Counted from the stretch's first letter, positions 26,355-53,063 are shown. The stretch: 64,000 bases of DNA from Escherichia coli (GCF_003790525.1 NZ_CP033635.1); one strand, 5' to 3'. Notes: a model not told the origin generated them from the letters alone. Numbers and translations: made by a program.

Positions 26355-26853
26355 ATGAATAAAGCAATAACGGTGCTTGCTATAATGATGGCTTCATTTT
26401 CCGTAAATGCGTATGTATTACCGGAAACGCCTGTGCCATTTAAAAGTGGTACCGGAGAAATTGATAACAACACTGTCTACATTGGTTTAGGTAGCGCAGG
26501 TACGGCATGGTACAAGCTGGAGAAACAGACCAAAGATAAAAAAATGGACAGCGTTAGCTGCATTTCCTGGTGGACCGAGAGATCAAGCAACCTCTGCATT
26601 TATTGATGGCAATCTGTATGTGTTTGGCGGCATTGGCAAAAACAGCGAGGGCTTGACTCAGGTATTTAATGACGTACACAAATACAACCCCAAAACCAAT
26701 AGCTGGGTTAAATTGATGTCGCACGCGCCGATGGGCATGGCGGGTCATGTGACATTTGTACACAACGGCAAGGCTTATGTTACTGGCGGTGTTAACCAGA
26801 ATATCTTCAACGGCTATTTTGAAGATCTTAACGAAGCTGGAAAAGATTCAACA
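26355..26853 (+). pseudogene. nanM: nanM (N-acetylneuraminate epimerase, Kelch repeat) remnant: frameshifted and 3'-truncated
   Basis: N-terminal signal peptide and Kelch-repeat sequence closely resemble E. coli NanM. The frame breaks in the A8 run at about 26541-26548 (nanM-like sequence continues in another frame), and similarity ends after ...NEAGKDST at about 26853. Confidence 0.7.
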
Positions 26854-26971
26854 TACCGAACGCCGGAGAACTGGACGACGACACCACGAAGCAGTCATTT
26901 CAGTCGGGGGATGATTGTAGACAAATTTGTTGACGCTATTTTGCGGTTTTGGCGTGAAGGGTGAGCATTCA

Positions 26972-40123: not shown

Positions 40124-40269
40124 ACATTCTGTTTACTAATAATTTATAGCCATTCACTGTTCCTGCATCATAGATATGGTGCAGCAACATTAAACACCAG
40201 CCATCTAAAAATTATGATTTATTAATTTCTGATTCAGTTAAATTCCTCTGAAAATAGATCCGTTATAGT

Positions 40270-40530
40270 TCCATGCATCTTTTGAAATCCCGACCAAATA
40301 ATGGGGTCGGCAAACATCTATTTGAGACGTTGGTTCTCATCCTCAAGATCTTTGATTATTTTAATATCAGAAGATTCCATACCACCGTATCTGGACTTCC
40401 AGTTGTAGTAAGTGGCTCAGAGAAGCCTGCCTCCCGGCAGACATCTTTAACAGTTCGCCCGTATTCAAGCGATTTAATCACGGCGATAATCTGATGCTCA
40501 GTAAAAGGGGCTTTACGCATAGCGATCTCC
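40270..40530 (-). pseudogene. IS3-family transposase OrfA remnant (frameshifted and truncated)
   Basis: Minus-strand translation MRKAPFTEHQIIAVIKSLEYGRTVKDVCREAGFSE..., then a frame break, then ...DIKIIKDLEDENQRLK*. Only about 260 bp of the element remains. Confidence 0.5.
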
Positions 40531-40594
40531 TTCATTGGCAGATTGATTATGCCGGAGGATCTCTAAATGTTAATGGCACGATTATGCGGGATAT

Positions 40595-41500
40595 TTACAA
40601 TACCAGTCCAACCCTCAGCTTACTGCAATGCCCATCAAGAGGGATGGTCCACATTGACGTATCAAAATCGCTCTCTGACCAGCGAGCAAAACGCAGCTCA
40701 CTGGATCGAATAAAGATAAGCAGAGTGAGTTCTGTCGCCCAGCGGGTTAGCGGCCTGCCGGTATAGCTGTCTATTTTCTCAAGTAACTCAGGGATGCGCT
40801 TTAACTCCAGCGCCGGACGATGCTGTCGATTACTGGAAGCAACCGCCCCCGCCATCTCCTGCGCCGGATTGTAATGAATTAACCCGCTTTGCACTGCATA
40901 ACGCATGATGGCCGTGGTGCGCTGTTGAAGGCGGGAAGCCACTTCAAAACGTCCAGATTTCTCCACGGCTTTAATGGGAATTAACAGATCGCGGGTGCCC
41001 AGTTCAGCAATATTGCGAGCACCAATTGTTGGGAAGATATTGTCCTCCAGGCTCTTTTTTCCACGATTAGCATGATCTTCCGACCATTTTTGGTTTGTCA
41101 CGAGCCACTCTCTGGCAACCTTCTCGAAAGTAATAATCTCTTTCGCCTGCTCTTCTTTCACAGCACGTTTATGCTCACGAGGATCGATACCAGCAGCGAC
41201 CAGCTTTCTGGCCTCTTCCCTTTTCTTCCGCGCATCCGCCAGCGAAACATCCGGGTAAACGCCGAACGCCATCAAATGTTGTTTACCACCAAAACGGAAA
41301 CGAAATCACCAATACTTTGAACCGCCAGGTTTTACAAGTAAAGACATGCCGTCGCCGTCAACAAGTGAATACTCTTTCTCCTCTGACTTCACAGAACGAA
41401 CTTTAGTATCCGTTAGGGCAATAATGGTCTTCCTTCCATTGGTATCTCGTGAGTATACAAGCAATATCGAATCGGCAAATATACTCATAAGTATACTCAC
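40595..41500 (-). pseudogene. P4-type tyrosine integrase, decayed (frameshifted, catalytic C-terminus missing)
   Basis: Two ORF fragments: 41306-41500 (...LTDTKVRSVKSEEKEYSLVDGDGMSLLVKPGGSKYW) and 40595-41275 (...GVYPDVSLADARKKREEARKLVAAGIDP...RFARWSE...). Both resemble the N-terminal two-thirds of the intact integrase at 51562-52815. Confidence 0.6.
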
Positions 41501-41622
41501 AAGCCTGTTGATGTGGGTTGAGTCAGGTTGACTTCAGTTGAGAAGAAAAGCTGGAAAAGCCTTGCGTGGCGCGGATTTCAGGCATAAAAAAAGACCTCAG
41601 TTGAGGTCTATTTACATACTTT

Positions 41623-41645
41623 TGGTGCGAAGGCCGGACTCAAAC
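41623..41645. repeat. Degenerate copy of the leuX 3' end (att remnant / tandem-island junction)
   Basis: tggtgcgaaggccggactcaaac matches the leuX 3' end tggtgccgaaggccggactcgaac at 52979-53002 except for one deletion and one substitution. Confidence 0.6.
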
Positions 41646-41847
41646 ATCAAAATAAGTTAATGATAAAAAACAAATAATAAAACACAACAATGAAATATGC
41701 CCCCTTTTGTGCCCCCACTGTTTTTCTGACCAATCTATTTTCAGCCCATCAATAAATCGGAAAGTTAAATCATTTTTAATCAGTAAGTTTGGATCCGTAG
41801 CTCGGCTCCAAACCAGTGCATCTTTTATCCACATAAAAAATTTTTTT

Positions 41848-42135
41848 TCGAAAGAACTGTTCACACTGTTCACCTTTCTGTTTTCTCCTTTTATTTCATA
41901 GTGATAGGTGGTGAATAATGGGTGAAGGGTGAACATTCGATTCTTCACCTCCGGCATTCTGCCGGTGTGACTTGTGCAGGGGATTAATTTCCCGTGCTGA
42001 AATCACACCGGAAGAAAAAAGTTTTTTTTGATTTGATTGTTCACACTGTTCACCTTTCGTTTTTCTCTTTTAATTTCAGTGTGATAACGGGTGAATATAC
42101 GGTGAAGGGTGAACAGTGGATTGTTCACCTTCGGG
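41848..42135. repeat. P4 crr-like cis-replication region: two roughly 110-bp direct repeats carrying TGTTCACC iterons
   Basis: Near-identical units at about 41848-41950 and 42020-42135 separated by about 70 bp. Each contains TGTTCAC(A/C)CTGTTCACC and inverted GGTGAA copies. Confidence 0.6.
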
Positions 42136-42146
42136 GAATTCAGGGA

Positions 42147-42172
42147 TAAAAAAAGACCGGCAGATGCCGGTC
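42147..42172 (-). terminator. Intrinsic terminator downstream of the alpha gene
   Basis: GACCGGCA..TGCCGGTC hairpin followed on the minus strand by a T7 run, a few nt after the alpha stop. Confidence 0.55.
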
Positions 42173-42179
42173 AGGTGGG

Positions 42180-44513
42180 TCAGGCTGTTGCAGGGTCGTC
42201 ACATTTTGGCAGCCAGTCGCCGTAGCTTTCCTCTTTCAGCGTCAGGTTGGTCTGTATCCCCTGTTTGGTATGGCGCTTCTCGTAATTCAGTCCGTATTCC
42301 TTCAGCATCACCGGCAGCCCCAGCCCGAACATTTTCAGACTGAGTACATTCCGGTAGCCGTTTGCCTCCATGTAGGCCAGATAGGCGTGATAGAGGTATT
42401 TACGGTAATTGCGCGGGATGATACTGGCGTTCCCCATATACATGCCGCTGGTCTGCGGCAGGGTTTCCAGATAGCCGATAAAATCAAACGTCGGGTCGGC
42501 ATCCCGTTTGATGTTCAGTGCCTCGTCTGAGTTCTGCTGGGACTGAAGCAGTGACCGGGCGAGCATCGGGTCGCTGAACTTCTGCATCAGGTGACGCACG
42601 ATGACCGCCAGCTCGCGGGTGATTTTGTCCTTAAGCTGCGGGTCGCGCTCCTGCGGGGCTATCTGTTCCGGGAAGTGAATAATCACCCGCCGGCGTGACA
42701 CGCCGCCGCTGCGGTCGGTGAAGCGCATCGGGTTATTGTTCACGGCCAGAATTACCGCCGGGATATGCGTGGAGTATGCATCCCGGTATTTCGGGTCAAC
42801 GGACACCGCATCGCCGCCGGTGATGGCCTTGAGTCCGGCACCGTCGCCGCTCCATTTTTCCTGGTCCGGCAGGCGTATCAGTGAGAAGCCAGTTAACGCG
42901 GCACGTTCACGCGGGGATTCCAGCGTCTCGATGGTGGCCGACGTGGCGTTATCCTCCCCGGCCAGCAGGGTGGCTATTTCGGCCATGATACTTTTGCCGC
43001 TGCCGCCGGGACCGGTCACCTCCAGAAAGAGCTGCCAGTCGTAGCGGTTTGCCAGCACCATAAACAGTGCGGCCAGAATCACGTCGCGTTTTTCCGCACG
43101 GCCACCGGCGGCACGGTCAAGCCAGCACCAGAACGCGGGGGCGTGGGTCTCCAGCGTTTCACCGTCCACCGGCGGGGTGAAATCCACATCGCACAGGGTG
43201 CGCATCCAGTGTGACGGACTGTGCGGGTGGAACGTGCCGTTCTGCGTGTCGAGCACGCCGTTACGAAAGCCAATCAGGCGGCGGGAGGGGGCTTCCTGCT
43301 GCGGAATAATCAGCTTCAGGGTGTCCACCACGGAGGCCACCTTCCCGGAGGAGAACGGCGCGCGCAGACGCTGAAACAGCCCGGCCACATCCCGGGCAAA
43401 GTCCTGTGGTGGCAGCACCTTCCAGACACCATTTTCATAACGGGACAGAAGCTGGCCGTTGGCATCGACCGCGAGCGCCTCGCCGTAATGCTCATAGATA
43501 CGCATGGCCTTTTCGCTGGTACTCATGGCGGAAAACTCCGCTTCACTCATGGTGTCGAACGGGCTTTCAGCCGGTGGCCGGATGGCATCGTAAATGGCCT
43601 TACGGGTGGCCTCCCCGCCGTACTGCGTGAAGGCATCATTCCAGTCACCGAAGACCGGTGGCAGGGCAACAACACCTTCACACGCATCTGCGGCTGCGGC
43701 GGCTTTTTTCTGGCCATCACCGCTGAGGTCACGGTCAGCGGCAAGGACAATCTGACAGGCGGGGTGCTTCTGCCGGGCAAGGCTGGCCAGAGAAAGGAGG
43801 TTCACGGAAGAAAGCGCCACCATCACCGTTTCACCGGTCAGGTGATGCACGGTAAGTGCGGTCGCGTATCCCTCCGCTATCCACAGACGTTTTCCGGCCT
43901 GATTCTGTCCTTCAAGGATGTGACAGGTGCCCCTGACCTGTCCGCCTTTCAGGGTGCGCTTACGGCCGTCAGCACTGATTAACTGAAGGTTAACCAGTTC
44001 GCCGCTGTCGTCATACAGTGGCACCACAAGGTCACCGGCGCGCCAGCTCACGCCACCGGCTCTGTGTGTGCCGGTCAGCATCCGGCATTCCCGGCCGGGA
44101 AAGCCCTTGCGGGTCAGGTAGGCGTTACCGGTTCCGGGACGGGTTTTCGCCATCAGGGTTTGTGCCAGTGCGGCGGCGTTCTTCCGGGCAGCGTCTGTTT
44201 CAGCACCGGCGGCAGCCGTCACTGCCGGGTCAGCCGGGGGCAGGCTGCCGGTCACGGCAGCCACCTTTGTGGCCGCGTCGGACGGGGAGACACCAAACAC
44301 CTTTTCAACCAGTTTCAGGCCGTCACCGGCACCACACTGATTGCAGTACCAGGTGCCGCGCCCCTCCCTGTCATCAAAACGGAAGCGGTCACTCCCGCCA
44401 CAGACCGGACAGGGCTGATGACGGTTCTTCAGCACCTGAATCCCCAGCGCCGGGAGAATACGCGGCCAGTGGCCGAGCGCATGGCTGACGGTGGCGGTTA
44501 CGTTCATTTTCAT
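42180..44513 (-). CDS. alpha: P4 alpha-like primase-helicase
   Basis: 777 aa ORF with an N-terminal zinc-binding primase motif (CPVCGGSDRF...YCNQCGAGDG), next to the TGTTCACC iteron clusters. Confidence 0.8.
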   Translation of the reverse strand: MKMNVTATVSHALGHWPRILPALGIQVLKNRHQPCPVCGGSDRFRFDDREGRGTWYCNQCGAGDGLKLVEKVFGVSPSDAATKVAAVTGSLPPADPAVTAAAGAETDAARKNAAALAQTLMAKTRPGTGNAYLTRKGFPGRECRMLTGTHRAGGVSWRAGDLVVPLYDDSGELVNLQLISADGRKRTLKGGQVRGTCHILEGQNQAGKRLWIAEGYATALTVHHLTGETVMVALSSVNLLSLASLARQKHPACQIVLAADRDLSGDGQKKAAAAADACEGVVALPPVFGDWNDAFTQYGGEATRKAIYDAIRPPAESPFDTMSEAEFSAMSTSEKAMRIYEHYGEALAVDANGQLLSRYENGVWKVLPPQDFARDVAGLFQRLRAPFSSGKVASVVDTLKLIIPQQEAPSRRLIGFRNGVLDTQNGTFHPHSPSHWMRTLCDVDFTPPVDGETLETHAPAFWCWLDRAAGGRAEKRDVILAALFMVLANRYDWQLFLEVTGPGGSGKSIMAEIATLLAGEDNATSATIETLESPRERAALTGFSLIRLPDQEKWSGDGAGLKAITGGDAVSVDPKYRDAYSTHIPAVILAVNNNPMRFTDRSGGVSRRRVIIHFPEQIAPQERDPQLKDKITRELAVIVRHLMQKFSDPMLARSLLQSQQNSDEALNIKRDADPTFDFIGYLETLPQTSGMYMGNASIIPRNYRKYLYHAYLAYMEANGYRNVLSLKMFGLGLPVMLKEYGLNYEKRHTKQGIQTNLTLKEESYGDWLPKCDDPATA

Positions 44514-44527
44514 GGTGTTGTTCTCCT

Positions 44528-44848
44528 TCAGTGCAGTACCGGCGCTTTTATGTGACGGGCACAGAGTTCATCCATCACAACCAGCCCGAGAAAGGACAGC
44601 GACGGCGCGGCCTTCAGGGGGCCGGATTCCATTAAATCTTCCAGCAGGGCACAGGCTATCTGACGCCCTTTTTCCTCACCGTGCTGGCGCAGATAAAAGC
44701 CTTCCAGCTCAGCGGCGATGGCCGCCTCCAGTGACTCAAGGGTGAGATGCGGGTAGCGGTGCTGACGTTCGCACACGGTCAGCCAGGCACAGGCGACAGC
44801 GCGACGGTAAAGGGCAGCGCGTAAGACGGGCGGTAAGGGTGTTTTCAT
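44528..44848 (-). CDS. Small P4-type protein (orf106/Cnr-like), function uncertain
   Basis: 106 aa ORF immediately upstream of alpha in the same operon. Confidence 0.45.
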
Positions 44849-44983
44849 TTGTTTTCCTCCCTGTGACAGATGACTGCATTCCGTGCCGGTTGCATTAACT
44901 GATAAGGCATATCTGCGTCTCCTGAAGACGTGCGTATCCCTGCGCGAATACGCACATTTAATTTTTCGGGTGTCGTTTTTTAA

Positions 44984-45439
44984 TTACAGATAATTGCGGT
45001 AACTGTTATCCGGGGTGATTTCCGGGTCAGGCTCCGTGCGGGGAATTTCCCGCCATTCCCGCGCCACCGGTGCCGCCCGGCTGACCGGAACAGTGTCCTG
45101 CGGGTAAATATCCAGATATTTCTCCCGCCATTTCTGTAATTCCGGGTCTCCGGCCATTTCTTTCAGTACCGCATGCCGGTTTACGGGGCTGCGTTTGAAC
45201 AGGTCAGGACGGTCACAGGTAAATTCCCGCAGAAAACGCCCCAGCGGGATGTCTGTGGTGCGCCCGTCGGCGAGGATACGCACAAGGATACTGAATTTAC
45301 GGCGGTACGGGTTCCAGACAATGTCCGGGCAGCGGTACGGCATTTCCCACGGAATACCGTCTTCCAGAATGCCGACCACGGCCACATCGGGAAAACCGGC
45401 AGAACGGTAAATCTCACCGGGCTGGGGAAAATCAAACAT
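44984..45439 (-). CDS. P4 orf151-like protein
   Basis: 151 aa ORF in the epsilon-alpha operon position. Confidence 0.45.
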   Translation of the reverse strand: MFDFPQPGEIYRSAGFPDVAVVGILEDGIPWEMPYRCPDIVWNPYRRKFSILVRILADGRTTDIPLGRFLREFTCDRPDLFKRSPVNRHAVLKEMAGDPELQKWREKYLDIYPQDTVPVSRAAPVAREWREIPRTEPDPEITPDNSYRNYL

Positions 45440-45719
45440 GCGTCCTGTCTCCCCGGTCTTTCTGCTGGGCGAGAAAATCGCGGCACAGGCCTTTGGCTTT
45501 CAGCTCATTCAGCACAAAATCAATATCTTCATTCAGGTAGCTGAAAATATGCGGAATGTAGAGCTGATGCAGGCCGGAGAGTTCACGGTGAATCAAATCA
45601 CCCCCAACAAACTGGGATACGGCGCTGGCGCGGTTGAGCTTATGGTAAGCCTCAATGCTGAGGTGTTCACGGGCGTCATGACGCGCTGAGACGGTCTGAG
45701 GGGCTTTTTTATTACGCAC
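45432..45719 (-). CDS. P4 epsilon-like small protein (putative GTG start)
   Basis: 95-codon frame beginning at a GTG at 45719..45717 ([20 protein letters not shown]...). The longer track ORF 45432-45959 has an implausible N-terminal extension. Confidence 0.35.
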
Positions 45720-46298
45720 GGGACACCTCCACCACCGGCAGACGGGCAGCAAGGGAGAGCACATAGTCACGGACAAGGGAACGGCGGGCGCTGCGTTCAT
45801 CACCGGCGACGGTGCGAAGCATGCAGATACGGGGATGACGGTCTGCGCGACGGACAGCCGCAAACACAAAGACAAATTCAGGGTGTGAGGGGGTAAGGGT
45901 TGTAGCCATAAGGCAGCCTCCTTCGAGTAGCAAATAACTGCTATCGCCGGAGTTCTCACGCTCGATGGCGATAGCCCAGACGGGGGTGAGAATACCGGCC
46001 TCGAAGAATACCGGCCAGCCCGGAGGCTGCCCCGCCTGAGCTACCATTGACTCAGTGGCATAACATGCGATTGCGAACAGGATAATACCTGCACGGCAAA
46101 CCACACGCCACACCATAATCTGGCGCTCTGTGGCGTTGATTGCGACACAAAAAAAGACGCATGGCGCGTCATATGTCGCCTTCGAGTTACACGGGTTCTC
46201 ACGCCCGGCTGCCGATTTTGCGGCAACGGAAAGACTATATCCGCAAATGCCGGAAAAAGGCAAGCCAGAAAAAGGGAGTTTTTGCAGAGCGGGCATCA

Positions 46299-46565
46299 TC
46301 ATGCGTCATACCCCCGTTTGCGTCCGGCAATGCGGCCGGCCATCCATGCGGTGACTTCAGAGTGCAGCCAGGCCACATTTTTACCGCCAAGACTCACCTG
46401 CGGCGGAAATTCCCCCTTACGGATGAGTTCGTAGATGGTCGAGCGTGACAGGCCGCACAGGTGCATCACTTCCGGAAGACGCAAAAAACGCTCCTGTGTG
46501 ATGTCCGGCTGCGGCATCAGTGGCGTCACAGGGGCGGGAGACGGGGAAGAAAAAACAGCTTGCAT
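46299..46565 (-). CDS. vis: Vis/AlpA-family small DNA-binding regulator
   Basis: 88 aa ORF with an AlpA-type HTH ([26 protein letters not shown]), at the head of the leftward operon. Confidence 0.6.
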
Positions 46566-46844
46566 CGGGCTACCTCGTTAATGTCCATACAGCACCGGAT
46601 AAGTCTGTCCGGCTTCGGGTAGCGCTTTATTTTGTGAATATTTTCAGCAGACGCAACAGGGGGGATTTGTTCCGGCAGCCTTACAATGCTTGTGTGTTTT
46701 TTGTTCATCTCCACTTAAAGTCATTTAAAGCCACTTAAAGCAATTCGTAATTTTTATAGTGAAATACAAATCGTTTTTTCTTATTCATTCCCGGCGAATT
46801 AATAAAAACAAACAGTAGTAAACAGCACAAAAAGCCCATCAACG

Positions 46845-46948
46845 GGTGAACAGTGGTGAACAGACGGTGAACAGTCATTACTGCGATTGTTCACCCTTTA
46901 ACTTACTGTATTACTTATCTTTTTTCTTATGGCGAACAGAGGTGAACA
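46845..46948. repeat. ori-like iteron cluster (GGTGAACAG repeats)
   Basis: Three tandem GGTGAACAG copies at 46845-46874 with 1-2 bp spacers, an inverted TGTTCACC at 46888-46895, and further copies at 46932-46948. Confidence 0.5.
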
Positions 46949-47117
46949 GTAAAATATAAAAAAACAAACAGTAAGACGGTTTTTCCTGCGACCTTTTCCT
47001 GGCTTGCCGGTGTGAGGATGAGTCTCCTGTGTCAGGGCTGGCACATCTGCAATGCGTCGTGTTGTTGTCCGGTGTACGTCACAATTTTCTTAACCTGAAG
47101 TGACGAGGAGCCGGAAA

Positions 47118-47852
47118 ATGTCTGACAACACCATCCCTGAATATCTGCAACCCGCGCTGGCACAACTGGAAAAGGCCAGAGCCGCCCATCTTGAGAACGC
47201 CCGCCTGATGGATGAGACCGTCACGGCCATTGAACGGGCAGAGCAGGAAAAAAATGCGCTGGCGCAGGCCGACGGAAACGACGCTGACGACTGGCGCACG
47301 GCCTTTCGTGCAGCCGGTGGTGTCCTGAGCGACGAGCTGAAACAGCGCCACATTGAGCGCGTGGCACGCCGGGAGCTGGTACAGGAATATGACAATCTGG
47401 CCGTGGTGCTGAATTTTGAACGCGAACGCCTGAAAGGGGCGTGTGACAGCACGGCCACCGCCTACCGGAAGGCACATCATCACCTGCTGAGTCTGTATGC
47501 AGAGCATGAGCTGGAACACGCCCTGAATGAAACCTGTGAGGCGCTTGTCCGGGCAATGCATCTGAGCATTCTGGTACAGGAAAATCCGCTCGCCAACACC
47601 ACCGGGCATCAGGGCTACGTCGCACCCGATAAAGCTGTCATGCAGCAGGTGAAATCATCGCTGGAACAGAAAATAAAACAGATGCAAATCAGCCTCACCG
47701 GCGAGCCGGTTCTCCGGCTGACCGGACTGTCAGCGGCAACACTCCCGCACATGGATTATGAGGTGGCAGGCACACCGGCACAGCGCAAGGTGTGGCAGGA
47801 CAAAATAGACCAGCAGGGAGCAGTGCTTAAGGCCAGAGGACTGCTGTCATGA
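47118..47852 (+). CDS. sid: P4 Sid-like capsid size determination protein
   Basis: 244 aa from the internal ATG (MSDNTIPEYLQPALAQLEKARAAHLENARLMDE...). Stop overlaps the delta start (ATGA). Confidence 0.75.
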   Translation: MSDNTIPEYLQPALAQLEKARAAHLENARLMDETVTAIERAEQEKNALAQADGNDADDWRTAFRAAGGVLSDELKQRHIERVARRELVQEYDNLAVVLNFERERLKGACDSTATAYRKAHHHLLSLYAEHELEHALNETCEALVRAMHLSILVQENPLANTTGHQGYVAPDKAVMQQVKSSLEQKIKQMQISLTGEPVLRLTGLSAATLPHMDYEVAGTPAQRKVWQDKIDQQGAVLKARGLLS

Positions 47853-48349
47853 TTTACTGCCCGTCGTGTGGACATGTTGCTCACACCCGTCGCGCACATT
47901 TCATGGACGATGGCACCAAGATAATGATTGCACAGTGCCGGAATATTTATTGCTCTGCGACATTTGAAGCGAGTGAAAGCTTTTTCTCTGACAGTAAAGA
48001 TTCAGGAATGGAATACATTTCAGGCAAACAGAGATACCGCGATTCACTGACGTCAGCCTCCGGCAGTATGAAACGCCCGAAAAGAATGCTTGTTACCGGA
48101 TATTGTTGTCGGAGATGTAAAGGCCTTGCACTGTCAAGAACATCGCGGCGTCTGTCTCAGGAAGTCACCGAGCGTTTTTATGTGTGCACGGATCCGGGCT
48201 GTGGTCTGGTGTTTAAAACGCTTCAGACCATCAACCGCTTCATTGTCCGCCCGGTCACACCGGACGAACTGGCAGAAAGCCTGCATGAAAAACAGGAACT
48301 GCCGCCAGTACGGTTAAAAACACAATCATATTCGCTGCGTCTGGAATGA
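47849..48349 (+). CDS. delta: P4 Delta-like late-gene activator (tandem Ogr-type zinc fingers)
   Basis: 166 aa ORF with two zinc-finger modules (MIYCPSCGHVAH...CRNIYC and CCRRCKGLAL...CTDPGC). Confidence 0.8.
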   Translation: MIYCPSCGHVAHTRRAHFMDDGTKIMIAQCRNIYCSATFEASESFFSDSKDSGMEYISGKQRYRDSLTSASGSMKRPKRMLVTGYCCRRCKGLALSRTSRRLSQEVTERFYVCTDPGCGLVFKTLQTINRFIVRPVTPDELAESLHEKQELPPVRLKTQSYSLRLE

Positions 48350-48422
48350 GGGCTGCCGGTTAACACCGGCCGTCGCCGCACACCGTATTTTTATTCTTCA
48401 GCATGATGAGAAAGAGATAACG

Positions 48423-48995
48423 ATGGAAAGCACAGCCTTACAGCAGGCCTTTGACACCTGCCAGAATAACAAAGCAGCATGGCTGCAACGCAAAAATGAG
48501 CTGGCTGCGGCCGAACAGGAATATCTGCGGCTTCAGTCCGGGGAAGGCAGAAACGTCAGTCGCCTTGACGAATTACGCAATATTATCGAAGTCAGAAAAT
48601 GGCAGGTGAATCAGGCCGCCGGTCGTTATATTCGTTCGCATGAAGCCGTTCAGCACATCAGCATCCGCGACCGGCTGAATGATTTTATGCAGCAGCACGG
48701 CACAGCACTGGCGGCGGCACTGGCACCGGAGCTGATGGGCTACAGTGAGCTGACGGCCATTGCCCGAAACTGTGCCATACAGCGTGCCACAGATGCCCTG
48801 CGTGAAGCCCTTCTGTCCTGGCTTGCGAAGGGTGAAAAAATTAATTATTCCGCACAGGATAGCGACATTTTAACGACCATCGGATTCAGGCCTGACGTGG
48901 CTTCGGTGGATGACAGCCGTGAAAAATTCACCCCTGCGCAGAACATGATTTTTTCGCGTAAAAGTGCGCAACTGGCATCACGTCAGTCTGTGTAA
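48423..48995 (+). CDS. psu: P4 Psu-like polarity suppression protein
   Basis: 190 aa ORF, third gene of the sid-delta-psu late operon. Confidence 0.75.
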   Translation: MESTALQQAFDTCQNNKAAWLQRKNELAAAEQEYLRLQSGEGRNVSRLDELRNIIEVRKWQVNQAAGRYIRSHEAVQHISIRDRLNDFMQQHGTALAAALAPELMGYSELTAIARNCAIQRATDALREALLSWLAKGEKINYSAQDSDILTTIGFRPDVASVDDSREKFTPAQNMIFSRKSAQLASRQSV

Positions 48996-49368
48996 AATTC
49001 CCCGAAAATCCGCCCGTTTTTACTGAAAAAAGCCATGCATCGATAAGGTGCATGGCTTTGCATGCGTTTCCCTGCCTCATTTTCTGCAAACCGCGCCATT
49101 CCCGGCGCGGTCTGAGCGTGTCAGTGAAACTGCATTAAAACCGCCCCGCAAAGCGGGCGGGCGAGGCGGGGAAAGCACTGCGCGCATGATATAAAAGAGT
49201 ATTAAGAATTTTACAGAAACAGCTAATACAGACGCTGAAGTAAAATCATTGAGACCATTCGTGATTTGATGCAAAAAATTGCACAACATAAGCTCCTATG
49301 GTTCATAGTAATACTATTAAACCTATCTTTTCGTTGGTATATTACCCATTTTGTAATGGAGAATTGAA

Positions 49369-51501
49369 ATGCTTTCTACTCAGGATATAAACGGTTTTTT
49401 TAATGCTGTTGACTCTCTCAAAAGGTTTAAACGAGCAGAAATAAGGGACAACAAAGATAAACCACTTATTGATTCACTTTACACAGATCTATTGCCAAAC
49501 AATCACGTCTTCAAAATGTGCTACGGGGAAAACACTACATTTTTAATTGGAAGAAAAGGCACAGGAAAATCCACAATAATTCTTAAACTTGAAAGTGAGT
49601 ACAGAAAAGAATCTTCATACCTCCCATGCTATATAGATACAAAAACAGTATTCGAAAGTGTTAGAGGTGAGTATCAAAAAATAGACTACCTAAAAGGGAA
49701 GATACCTGAAGAGCATCTAGAAAAATATTTAGTCGAGCGTGCATTCATTAAAAACATCTTGAAATCAATCGGTGACGAATTGAATATTCGAGCAGAAAGC
49801 ATATTCTCAAAACTAGCAGGGATTGTTAATGCAAGCAAAAAACAAGCGGTAAAAGCAAAAATAACAAAACTACTTTTAATGGTGGACAATAACCAAATAA
49901 TAAAAGAAATTGAAATACCCGTAATAACAGAAGTAAATACTAAACTTACTAAGGCGAACGAATCAGAAAATGGAACTACCCAAAACTATAACTCTGAGCT
50001 AACTGTAAAAATCGGAACATCACAACATGAAGGTGGTGGAAAAATAGGAGCGGTAAAAGGAATCACCTCAAGACAGAAAAACAATGACGCTTGGGAAAAG
50101 AGTTTCTCTACAGCCCTTCTAAAGGTTTTTCAAATCACATCAGTAATTGAAGAAATTAAAATCATATTAAGAGAGCTAGGAGTAAAAAAGCTTGTAATAT
50201 TTTTAGACGATTTCTCTGAAGTTGAAGAGAAGACGCTAAAAAACTTCGTCGATGTTGTACTTGCTCCGCTAAATAACTGGGCTAATGATTTCATTTGTTT
50301 TAAAGTCGCTGCCTACCCAAGTCGCATATATTATGGCGACATTGATGTTGGCAAAATAGATGTGGTAAATTTAGATTTTTATAATTTATATTCTAATTAT
50401 GATAAATCTACGATGGAATCCTTATCAGCTGACTTCACCAAGAGACTTTTAAATCAAAGGCTTAATCAGTTTTGCACATTGAAGTTTGAAGATTATTTTG
50501 ATACATCTTCAGCTACTCCAGAAGAGTACTATGATCTTATATTTAAAGTATCCATGAATGTCCCTAGAATTATAGGATACATTCTTTATTACTGCCATCA
50601 AACCAATGTATCTCTTGGCAGAAAAATAAATAAAGGCTCAATCGAGAAAGCAGCTCAGACTTATTATGAGCAAGTTGTATCTAAGTTTTTCGATATTGCC
50701 ACGCATAGTCTGATGTCTTTCAGTGAAAAAGTTTCTGAACTTCAGCAAAAAGAGATTCTAAATCTCTTCGTTCAGAAATTAAAAACGATTAAGCGACAAA
50801 TAATAACAAATGAACTAACTGGCACAATTTACAATAGAGACAGAACAAATCCTTATTGTAGTCATTTTTATTTTCAACCTAATCTTGAACATTTTCTGCG
50901 TACATTGGAGCTTAATTTCTTCATTACCAAATATAATGAATTAGTAAATAAAGACGGAAACAAGGTCTCGATATATGGAATAAATTATGGATTAGCTCGA
51001 AGTGAAAACCTCAAATGGGGAAAACCTGAAGGTAATCAGTTCCGTAGTTATTTCGTAGAAAGACCATTTGATTTCAACAAAGATATCGAAGATTTCTTAA
51101 GAGAATCGAAAAAAATCGTATGTCTTAATAGCTCTTGTGATAAAACCTATCCATATGAAGAACTTGCATTTCTTGAATATAATAAAATGAGATGTATTGA
51201 ATGCCAGTCGCCTGTTGAAGTAAGATCGTTTTCTGAAAGTATCAGTTCTGAAATATCTAAAATTGACAACGCTAAACTTTTACCAAAATTAGAATTAATG
51301 ATATTACATGAACTGAATAAGGCAGACGATCATCTCCTAGCTCGAGACATTGCTGAGGAACTAGACGCTTCATCACAATTAATTGCCAAACGGGCTGAAA
51401 AATTAGACAGAAAAGGTCTTGTTTTTAGAGATAAAAGTGATGCATTAATTAAGTATTCAATAACAAATAAAGCAGTAGAAGGTTATTTCTATGATGACTA
51501 A
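49369..51501 (+). CDS. Uncharacterised P-loop NTPase with C-terminal zinc ribbon and winged-helix-like domain; candidate anti-phage defence gene in the P4 psu-int hotspot
   Basis: 710 aa ORF, conspicuously AT-rich compared with flanking P4-like genes. Walker A LIGRKGTGKST, Walker B-like LVIFLDDFSEVEE, Cys4 cluster CLNSSCDKTYPYEELAFLEYNKMRCIECQSP, and a C-terminal wHTH-like segment. Confidence 0.6.
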   Translation: MLSTQDINGFFNAVDSLKRFKRAEIRDNKDKPLIDSLYTDLLPNNHVFKMCYGENTTFLIGRKGTGKSTIILKLESEYRKESSYLPCYIDTKTVFESVRGEYQKIDYLKGKIPEEHLEKYLVERAFIKNILKSIGDELNIRAESIFSKLAGIVNASKKQAVKAKITKLLLMVDNNQIIKEIEIPVITEVNTKLTKANESENGTTQNYNSELTVKIGTSQHEGGGKIGAVKGITSRQKNNDAWEKSFSTALLKVFQITSVIEEIKIILRELGVKKLVIFLDDFSEVEEKTLKNFVDVVLAPLNNWANDFICFKVAAYPSRIYYGDIDVGKIDVVNLDFYNLYSNYDKSTMESLSADFTKRLLNQRLNQFCTLKFEDYFDTSSATPEEYYDLIFKVSMNVPRIIGYILYYCHQTNVSLGRKINKGSIEKAAQTYYEQVVSKFFDIATHSLMSFSEKVSELQQKEILNLFVQKLKTIKRQIITNELTGTIYNRDRTNPYCSHFYFQPNLEHFLRTLELNFFITKYNELVNKDGNKVSIYGINYGLARSENLKWGKPEGNQFRSYFVERPFDFNKDIEDFLRESKKIVCLNSSCDKTYPYEELAFLEYNKMRCIECQSPVEVRSFSESISSEISKIDNAKLLPKLELMILHELNKADDHLLARDIAEELDASSQLIAKRAEKLDRKGLVFRDKSDALIKYSITNKAVEGYFYDD

Positions 51502-51561
51502 ATAGAAACTAACAATGAAAAGCTCAACGCTGATTCTAGGGCGTTGAGCTACTTAATAATT

Positions 51562-52815
51562 TTAGATCCTAGCAAAATCATAGGCCGTAATATTTTGATA
51601 TCGATTAATATCTAGATAGTCAGCCCACCATTGCATCATCAAACGACGCTCTTCTAAATGCTCTGAAGTATGAATATAAGCTGCGCGTACATTGTTACGT
51701 TCTGAATGGCTCAATTGACGTTCTATCGCATCATCACTCCATAGTCCCGATTCCCCCAACGCCCCGCGTGCCATAGTCCTAAAACCATGGCCACATACTT
51801 CTGTTTTTGTGTCATATCCCATTACACGCAATGCATTGTTTACCGTATTTTCACTCATAACCTTAGTTGCGTCATGATCGCCCGGGAAAAGAAAGTCTCT
51901 ATCACCACTAATCTGCTTAAGCTGTTCTAACAATATAATCGCCTGTCGGCTAAGCGGAACTATATGCTCCTCTTTCATTTTCATGCCACGATACGAGTAA
52001 CGTACGCCTTTAATTTCTTCTCGTTTAGCAGGAATACGCCAAGTAGCGTTATCAAAATCAAATTCTTTCCAACGAGCAAAACGTAATTCACTTGAACGAA
52101 CAAAAGTTAGTAAAGAAAGCTCAACCGCAATTTTCGTCATCATACGCCCACGATATACATCAAGACGTGCCAAGAACTCATGGAAACGATGTGATGGTAG
52201 CGCCGGGTAGTGCCGCGTTTTCGCCGTAGATAACGCACCGGCCATATCAATTGCAGGATTTGAGTCTACATAATCGTTCTGAACAGCATAGCGCATAATA
52301 GCAGTGACACGTTGCTGAAGACGCTGCGCTACATCATGCTTACCACTGGCATCAACTTTTTTTATCGGTGCCAAAAGGTGACTAGTTTTAAGCTGTCGAA
52401 TATCAGACGAGCCAATATAGGGAAAGATATAAAGCTCTAGATAGCGAAGAACCCGTGCCCGATGTTCCTCACTCCAACGCTTATTGCTGGCATGCCATTC
52501 ACGAGCAATAGTTTCAAAATTATAAGCACCAGCATTAACTGCTTGGGCCTCTTTCTGTACTGCTTTTGGATCTATACCTTGCACCAGCAACTTTTTGGCT
52601 TCATCCCTTCTAGCTCTAGCTTCAGCAAGCGTCACAGTCGGCCAAACACCAAAAGCAAGACGATCCTCTTTTTTGTCGGAAGGTCGTCTATATTTCATAC
52701 GCCAATATTTAGAGCCTTTGACAGAAACCTCGAGGTACAAACCGCCACCATCGGCCATTTTATAGGTTTTATCTTTTGGCTTTGCGGTCTCGACCTGTCT
52801 GGCGTTGAGCTTCAT
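51562..52815 (-). CDS. int: P4-type tyrosine integrase (IntB-like), intact
   Basis: MKLNARQVETAKPKDKTYKMADGGGLYLEV... with a complete C-terminal catalytic region (...HGFRTMARGAL..., ...HSERNNVRAAYIHT). Begins about 165 bp from the leuX 3' end, in the same orientation. Confidence 0.85.
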   Translation of the reverse strand: MKLNARQVETAKPKDKTYKMADGGGLYLEVSVKGSKYWRMKYRRPSDKKEDRLAFGVWPTVTLAEARARRDEAKKLLVQGIDPKAVQKEAQAVNAGAYNFETIAREWHASNKRWSEEHRARVLRYLELYIFPYIGSSDIRQLKTSHLLAPIKKVDASGKHDVAQRLQQRVTAIMRYAVQNDYVDSNPAIDMAGALSTAKTRHYPALPSHRFHEFLARLDVYRGRMMTKIAVELSLLTFVRSSELRFARWKEFDFDNATWRIPAKREEIKGVRYSYRGMKMKEEHIVPLSRQAIILLEQLKQISGDRDFLFPGDHDATKVMSENTVNNALRVMGYDTKTEVCGHGFRTMARGALGESGLWSDDAIERQLSHSERNNVRAAYIHTSEHLEERRLMMQWWADYLDINRYQNITAYDFARI

Positions 52816-52978
52816 TTGGGGGCACATCCCTAATCGAAGTTAAGATGCCCCCAATTATGCCCCCAATGACATCCGGATTTCAACGTACAACCTCGGACGA
52901 CTCGGGACGTTAAAATCACTGCAAGCATTGATTTTTAAGGAATTATTGGACTTTCTCGGATGGTCTAGGAAGTGCTTA

Positions 52979-53063
52979 TGGTGCCGAAGGCCGGACTCGA
53001 ACCGGCACGTATTTCTACGGTTGATTTTGAATCAACTGCGTCTACCGATTTCGCCACTTCGGC
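52979..53063 (-). tRNA. leuX: tRNA-Leu (anticodon CAA), leuX
   Basis: Reverse complement reads GCCGAAGTGGCGAAATCGGTAGACGCAGTTGATTCAAAATCAACCGTAGAAATACGTGCCGGTTCGAGTCCGGCCTTCGGCACCA, an 85-nt class II tRNA with CAA anticodon and encoded CCA. Confidence 0.9.

Follow-up and report, generated by a model that had tools for sequence, protein, structure and literature searches.

Gene content of the leuX region

The window analysed here is a 64,000-nucleotide stretch of an Escherichia coli genome (GCF_003790525.1, NZ_CP033635.1). ARAGORN found a single tRNA gene in this window, an intact tRNA-Leu(CAA) gene, leuX, located at 52979-53063 on the minus strand and also recovered by the Rfam tRNA model and by an exact 25-mer match. 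The last 20 bp of leuX (52979-52998) constitute attL, the proximal att core of a P4-like satellite whose body fills 41646-52978 on the minus strand. We delineated this satellite using its attP sequence, crr repeats, Rfam RNAs, homology to the Int and Vis proteins of phage P4, and the RefSeq annotation of strain 2D, a close relative that is identical to the window over the junction described below.

Reading away from leuX, the satellite encodes an intact 421-aa integrase (51562-52827, minus strand) that is 90% identical to P4 Int, followed by a variable cargo gene for a 710-aa protein (49369-51501, plus strand), which lies between psu and int. The ORFs at 47100-48995 (plus strand) have the sizes of sid, delta and psu, and were assigned as such solely by synteny, size and the RefSeq annotation of strain 2D. 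Beyond them are vis (46302-46565, minus strand), whose product is 98% identical to P4 Vis, and two RNAs identified by Rfam, isrK (46150-46227, minus strand) and the C4/CI antisense RNA (45964-46051, minus strand); c4-a1b1 target motifs were matched as well. The element then continues with a gene for a 777-aa alpha primase (42180-44513, minus strand) and two 120-bp crr repeats (41835-41954 and 42015-42134) that have the same 180-bp spacing as in P4. The hallmark set of P4 satellites (alpha primase, crr, CI/C4 RNA, vis, sid/delta/psu and int) is present. The satellite retains int, vis, both att sites and its replication and immunity modules and, judging from its sequence, is potentially mobile.

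The 710-aa cargo protein has a weak match to P-loop ATPases of the Sll1717 family and no match in PADLOC. The same slot between psu and int holds a gene for an 824-aa TIR-domain protein in strain 2D. In O157:H7 FRIK944 it holds an HTH gene together with a type II restriction endonuclease and a cytosine methyltransferase, such that an ATPase-like protein in the window stands opposite a type II restriction-modification system in O157. The int gene of the satellite is 87% identical at the nucleotide level to its counterpart in O157:H7, and the remainder of the satellite is 96-99% identical, which suggests mosaic exchange at the int/cargo end.

A displaced leuX 3' end at the far side of the satellite

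The sequence tggtgcgaaggccggactcaaac is found at 41623-41645, precisely where the original prediction had placed a partial copy of the leuX 3' end. Compared with the leuX 3' end itself, TGGTGCCGAAGGCCGGACTCGAAC, this copy has one C missing and one G>A change (TGGTGC-GAAGGCCGGACTCaAAC aligned against TGGTGCCGAAGGCCGGACTCgAAC), and the alignment upholds its relation to att. The 13-mer GAAGGCCGGACTC occurs at two sites only in the window, in leuX and in the copy at 41623, and two or more matches were found in 0 of 100 shuffled sequences.

The flanks of the copy identify it. The 50 bp to its left (41573-41622, minus strand) are identical to the sequence downstream of leuX in ApSLC23, ZH063 and K-12 DH10B, and in satellite-free genomes this segment lies directly 3' of the leuX end. 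It is thus a displaced leuX trailer, in which a terminator scan detected a Rho-independent terminator-like hairpin (41592-41609). To the right, the sequence follows the right arm of P4 attP nearly base for base and runs into the crr repeats. When 52828-52978 is joined to 41623-41850, the reconstructed attP is ~99% identical to P4 3927-4300 over ~370 bp, including both arms and crr; on the attL side, 52828-52998 aligns to P4 3927-4097, and the tRNA gene there is intact. Because native leuX flank lies on the left and P4 attP arm and crr lie on the right, 41623-41645 is the distal att of a P4-like satellite and not a chance match. Read in this way, it is the predicted attR of a satellite spanning 41623-52998. 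No strand is assigned to attR, which consists of a 19-bp core (41623-41641), TGGTGC-GAAGGCCGGACTC, followed by AAAC from the satellite arm. P4 attP reads TGGTGCCGAAGGCCGGACTC followed by AAACATCAAAATAAG in the annotation of GenBank NC_001609/X05947, where the core is 20 bp. The copy at 41623 is a 19-bp version of this P4 core, with 19 of its 20 bases and one C fewer.

The counterpart of P4p05, a 105-aa ORF at 41640-41957 (minus strand), overlaps crr. Its stop codon, TGA (41640-41642), is made up of the last core bases and an A that is specific to the arm; the same position in leuX reads CGA.

A truncated integrase beside a deleted insertion sequence

On the other side of the displaced trailer lies a pseudogene of a P4-family tyrosine integrase of the IntB/PAI II536 type (40635-41422, minus strand), which comprises codons 1 to ~262 of 422. 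Its former start codon is 201 bp from the leuX copy, a distance that had been given earlier as about 180 bp. Taking as reference the intact 422-aa integrase that adjoins leuX in strain ZH063, to which the pseudogene has 96% amino acid identity over 261 residues, we found three lesions: the start codon is changed from ATG to ATT (41420-41422), codon 39 is changed from CGA to a TGA nonsense codon (41306-41308), and homology to the intact integrase ends at 40635, at approximately residue 262. The Pfam domains of the ZH063 ortholog are Arm-DNA-bind_3 (residues 3-87), Phage_int_M (99-193) and Phage_integrase (206-384). A break at ~262 leaves about one third of the catalytic domain and removes about two thirds of it, in line with the loss of the catalytic C-terminus noted earlier. 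Both the complete three-domain architecture and an intact frame with a start codon are absent.

The pseudogene matches NCBIfam PRK09692 (E=4e-35) and is 73-74% identical to the Int of PAI II536 and to K-12 IntB, both of which are full length, and 49% identical to P4 Int. By homology, the remnant is a relic of the P4-family tyrosine integrases and not a functional member, and it is placed within the leuX-targeting P4 family on a different branch than the integrase of the satellite. The original prediction described this integrase as broken into two frames. Its two ORFs (41306-41500 and 40595-41275) are in one frame and are split by the TGA at 41306-41308; comparison of the frames with those of the intact ZH063 ortholog rules out a frameshift. 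For the identical sequence in strain 2D, RefSeq records "internal stop; incomplete", which agrees with the lesions found here.

Next to the integrase break is an internally deleted IS3-family element of 351 bp (40249-40599, minus strand), which we defined by alignment to a complete copy (locus L006). The left end of the element, including IRL (TGTAAATATCCC...), corresponds to 40305-40599, and the right end, including IRR (...CTATTTTCA), to 40249-40304; both match the termini of the complete copy. The 295 bp from the left end are fused directly to the 56 bp from the right end, such that ~0.86 kb of a 1.2-kb IS is gone, including the OrfB DDE transposase and with it most of the transposase. The complete IS is ~1209 bp and multicopy, and the complete copy has a GTAC target duplication, whereas the deleted element has no target-site duplication (its flanks are GTAT vs GAGG). 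The deleted element has ~90% nucleotide identity to plasmid genes annotated as IS3 family transposase. Within it, an OrfA remnant (40305-40520, minus strand) starts with an ATG at 40518-40520 and contains a 1-bp deletion, which shifts the frame, and a CAG>TAG stop; its repaired translation matches NCBIfam transpos_IS3 with an E-value of 2.9e-9, a partial match that is under the full-length cutoff. The OrfA piece that had been described earlier is therefore real, but it is not merely a truncated gene, as it is part of an internal-deletion derivative that keeps both termini.

Nor does the OrfA-bearing element abut the integrase, as had been proposed. A 35-bp filler (40600-40634, no strand assigned) intervenes between the left end of the IS and the integrase break. 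The filler matches neither the integrase, whose homology ends at 40635, nor the IS, which starts at 40599. An origin as part of the IS is ruled out, as homology among the multicopy IS begins at the TGTAA end. It is kept in 2D, O157 FRIK944 and ApSLC23. There is a loose resemblance between the filler and the sequence next to this IS in plasmid pRHB14-C07_2, possibly a sign of target preference.

The window, 2D, O157:H7 FRIK944 and ApSLC23 all have the truncation, the filler and the deleted IS. Among these four, the ATT and TGA lesions are confined to the window and 2D; the ApSLC23 stub has a frameshift of its own, and the O157 stub has no added lesion. Being common to all four sequences, the truncation predates the lineage-specific point lesions and is the oldest lesion. 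The stub would then have drifted neutrally after it was truncated. Between the window and O157, the stub has 94% identity and is the most diverged segment after the satellite int gene (87%); for Zorya and the satellite alpha gene the figure is 98-99%.

A composite defence island with no detectable distal att

Further from leuX lies an older island of defence genes. PADLOC identified Druantia III (DruH3/DruE3), Zorya II and Wadjet III (JetA3, JetC3, JetD3), as well as a DrmD-like helicase and a type IIG/DrmMI-like methyltransferase. The original prediction had assigned Wadjet, Zorya, Druantia and a DISARM-like operon to a single older island, which by the following comparisons is a composite rather than one element. 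A fragment of nanM at 26620-26964 (N-acetylneuraminate epimerase, ~residues 97-177), which also occurs in O157 and 2D, lies between Zorya II and the HNH/PT-DNA endonuclease genes. It divides the Zorya/Druantia/DrmD-like block from the leuX-proximal genes, and suggests that this block was added in a separate event near the nanS/nanM boundary. In addition, the cassette of Wadjet and BrxR is absent from O157, whose integrase/IS scar is the same. In strain 536, the PT-DNA endonuclease is outside the distal repeat of PAI II.

A distal att for the island was also looked for. We found no third copy of the leuX core in the window, either with a 25-mer allowing 3 mismatches or with a 13-mer allowing 1-2 mismatches, and none with the 13-mer (1-2 mismatches) in the 48 kb of strain 2D that extend to fimB/fimH. 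The ancestral distal flank known from strain 536 was likewise not found in the window or in 2D up to fimB. From the lack of a working integrase together with the lack of a detectable distal att, we infer that the old island cannot excise by site-specific recombination. Immobilisation had earlier been attributed to integrase decay. The integrase is indeed dead, but the distal att is absent as well, giving two reasons instead of one.

The jetC gene of Wadjet type III (30927-36686) is split by an IS256-family insertion whose transposase gene occupies 31334-32542. The segment at 32601-36686 encodes JetC residues 1-1358, and that at 30927-31244 encodes residues 1374-1478. Because of this split, Wadjet is probably inactive in this strain. 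In strain 2D, jetC is intact.

A probable tandem of two elements at leuX, and the likely order of their arrival

The original prediction proposed that a P4-like satellite integrated in tandem at the att site of leuX, beside an older island whose integrase had decayed. The flanks of attR and the genomes that lack the satellite bear this out. We consider it likely, with a probability of roughly 85%, that the junction is the seam of two integrative elements inserted in tandem at the 3' end of leuX, of which the island came first and the satellite later. An element with an IntB/PAI II536-type P4-family integrase would first have sat directly against leuX, with the leuX trailer and terminator contributed by its integrase-side arm. 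The integrase would have lost everything past codon ~262 in an old rearrangement linked to an IS3-family element, which would itself later have undergone its internal deletion. As the stub drifted as a pseudogene, this lineage would have added the ATG>ATT change and the TGA nonsense codon. A P4-like satellite would later have recombined its attP with the leuX 3' end by means of its own integrase, regenerating a full leuX on the integrase side (attL, 52979-52998) and displacing the old trailer and terminator, joined to the 19-bp core, to the far end (attR, 41623-41641). The connection between the integrase truncation and the IS is weakened by the 35 bp between them and by the lack of a target duplication, and we describe the two as associated.

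Of 5426 complete E. coli genomes, 373 have the entire scar. In ApSLC23, O157:H- 493/89 and O111:H8, the same dead integrase and IS lie against an intact leuX and the satellite is absent; comparison of island structure across related genomes had been suggested earlier, and these genomes are its outcome. One of these, 493/89, is clonal with O157:H7 at this locus. Identity between it and O157:H7 FRIK944 is 99.86% on the island side (6.2 kb compared) and 100% on the chromosomal side (4.2 kb compared); what separates the two is the ~9.5-kb satellite, together with eight substitutions in the island-side sequence. That the satellite is present in some genomes and absent from others is directly observed, like the anatomy and homologies of the junction; the order of events is what we infer from them. 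A dead island against an intact leuX without a satellite, including in the clonal 493/89, supports the order in which the island came first and the satellite later. The satellite-free state of 493/89 could reflect loss of the satellite instead of its never having been gained.

Geometry alone leaves the order unfixed. If the satellite had arrived at leuX first and the island had later entered the distal att copy of the satellite, the same layout would be predicted, with the island integrase beside the copy, and the copy at 41623 does retain 19 of the 20 core bases. We nevertheless regard this reverse order as improbable. In genomes that lack the satellite, among them a clonal relative of O157:H7, the same island sits against a functional leuX with its integrase already dead, and intact integrases of the same family directly adjoin leuX in K-12, 536 and ZH063. 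Moreover, the distal copy is without the tRNA body, which is the other half of attB.

Another possibility is that the whole stretch between the left of the window and leuX forms one mobile island in which the internal att copy is a mere relic. The genes from leuX to nanS are all accessory and a single intact integrase is present, as this model would have it. It is made very unlikely by the lack of any further core copy in the window or, in 2D, onward to fimB, by the absence of the 536-type distal flank, by a satellite whose presence or absence is independent of the island, and by att repeats that bracket the satellite alone. Two related systems at leuX can be compared with the junction. In K-12 (leuX-intB, KpLE2) and in UPEC 536 (PAI II536), a P4-family integrase lies directly 3' of leuX with the same trailer and terminator, although the integrase is full length in both and truncated in the window. 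PAI II536 integrates at leuX only (PMC3202238). Its distal repeat, TGGTC-GAAGGCCGGACTCGAAC (L070 ~890-915), is an 18-bp exact repeat with leuX, whereas the island in the window has no distal repeat.

The flank of the PAI II536 distal repeat is a different, terminator-containing, ancestral sequence (gccgctcttgagcgactc...gcatacggtg). This flank is the commonest among metagenome junctions.

In O157 Sakai, the published boundary between SpLE5 and SpLE6 is the counterpart of this junction, such that its layout is already known. The O157 tables list SpLE5, which runs for 9.5 kb from tRNA-Leu to int, directly beside SpLE6, which runs for 34.5 kb from int to nanS (PMC8190617). The O157:H7 junction shares with the window the truncated integrase, the 35-bp filler, the deleted IS, the 19-bp core and the end of a P4-like satellite, and the two are 94% identical across 40200-41650. 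They differ in that the window integrase has two more point lesions than that of O157, and in that the interval from the scar to the PT-DNA restriction endonuclease contains Wadjet type III with BrxR/WYL, PDC-S11 and an HNH gene in the window but not in O157. Excised circles of the SpLEs of O157 Sakai were not detected with or without mitomycin C (PMC2669165). The excision-circle PCR that had been suggested for each element has therefore effectively been done in the published O157 Sakai homologs, with a negative result for both. The arrangement is real but ordinary, being documented as SpLE5/SpLE6 and found as a scar in hundreds of sequenced E. coli. Its main value lies in correct annotation, in that it marks where a potentially mobile satellite with variable cargo meets a composite defence island that is fixed in place and contains Druantia III, Zorya II, Wadjet III and DrmD-like/type IIG genes. 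It also illustrates that the leuX hotspot grows through stacking.

The 19-bp core as a possible signature of the element family

The copy at 41623 had been labelled degenerate on the basis of its two differences from leuX. One of these, the G>A at 41642, is outside the 20-bp core. Since P4 attP reads TGGTGCCGAAGGCCGGACTC and then AAACATC..., the A at 41642 belongs to the satellite arm and is no mutation. The other difference, the missing C (TGGTGC vs TGGTGCC), is far from unique to the window. The single-C core is found at ~61 of 62 element-distal junctions sampled (window 41623-41628; loci L001, L002, L009-L021, L023-L068, L072 and L073): in 8 of 8 E. coli genomes examined, in all 10 true junctions in viral contigs, which were sought with a pattern that left the left half free, and in 43 of 44 metagenome junctions. 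These junctions span several left flanks and at least 4 element arms. CC is found in every functional leuX and in the clonal empty site of 493/89. The combination of CC with a following AAAC had just three occurrences: P4 attP, a single metagenome contig (L033) and a genuine tRNA gene of Pantoea (L022). A scan of genome contigs for junctions yielded 3 loci, one of which was the genuine Pantoea tRNA. Apart from P4, no natural attP in its excised form was found in phage records, viral contigs or metagenomes, and no description of the 19-bp core form was found in the literature searched.

These data bear on whether the copy is a randomly decayed relic, in which mutations after integration locked the satellite in place. 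Such decay would fit a copy that differs from leuX at two positions and an O157 homolog for which no excision was detected (PMC2669165). It would also be expected to produce varied lesions, and instead the same single C is missing at 8/8, 10/10 and 43/44 junctions with varied flanks and arms, the clonal empty site in 493/89 has CC, and the G>A is beyond the core and the same as in P4 attP. We consider random decay highly improbable; the missing C is better described as a feature of the family, and the 19-bp form, in which 19 of the 20 bases of the P4 core are kept, is the norm in natural junctions. A stronger formulation, that TGGTGCC>TGGTGC is a conserved signature carried by natural leuX-targeting P4-family elements themselves, is one that we offer tentatively and at somewhat less than even odds.

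The clonal O157 pair is pertinent here. If O157:H7 gained the satellite, the deletion arrived with the satellite; if 493/89 lost it, excision restored the CC. With either history, judging by the two sequences, the deletion behaves as though the crossover left it with the element. Were it carried by the element, the natural attP core would be 19 bp and laboratory phage P4, with its full 20 bp, would be the exception. Given how prevalent the 19-bp form is in natural junctions, the textbook definition of a 20-bp core may be unfit for natural elements. An element-borne deletion would also place strand exchange on the 3'-terminal side of the missing C, in the last six bases of the tRNA gene (GCACCA; TGGTGC). 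On the other hand, re-integration of PAI II into the deletion strain 536-21 was reported to restore a complete leuX (PMC3202238), a result that suggests a crossover in the 18-bp central repeat for PAI II536. The two lines of evidence conflict, with 536-21 suggesting strand exchange within the central identity of 13-18 bp and the O157 clonal pair suggesting the 3' end. The near-universal 19-bp distal core is relevant to the position of strand exchange by P4-family integrases, and to whether leuX stays intact when such an element is lost.

At the distal junction of two satellites, in E. coli EC556 (L012 ~2480-2520) and at L073 (~1810-1860), there are three tandem copies of the motif GGTGCGAA (TGGTGCGAAGGTGCGAAGGTGCGAAGGCCGG...), a local expansion located exactly at the core.
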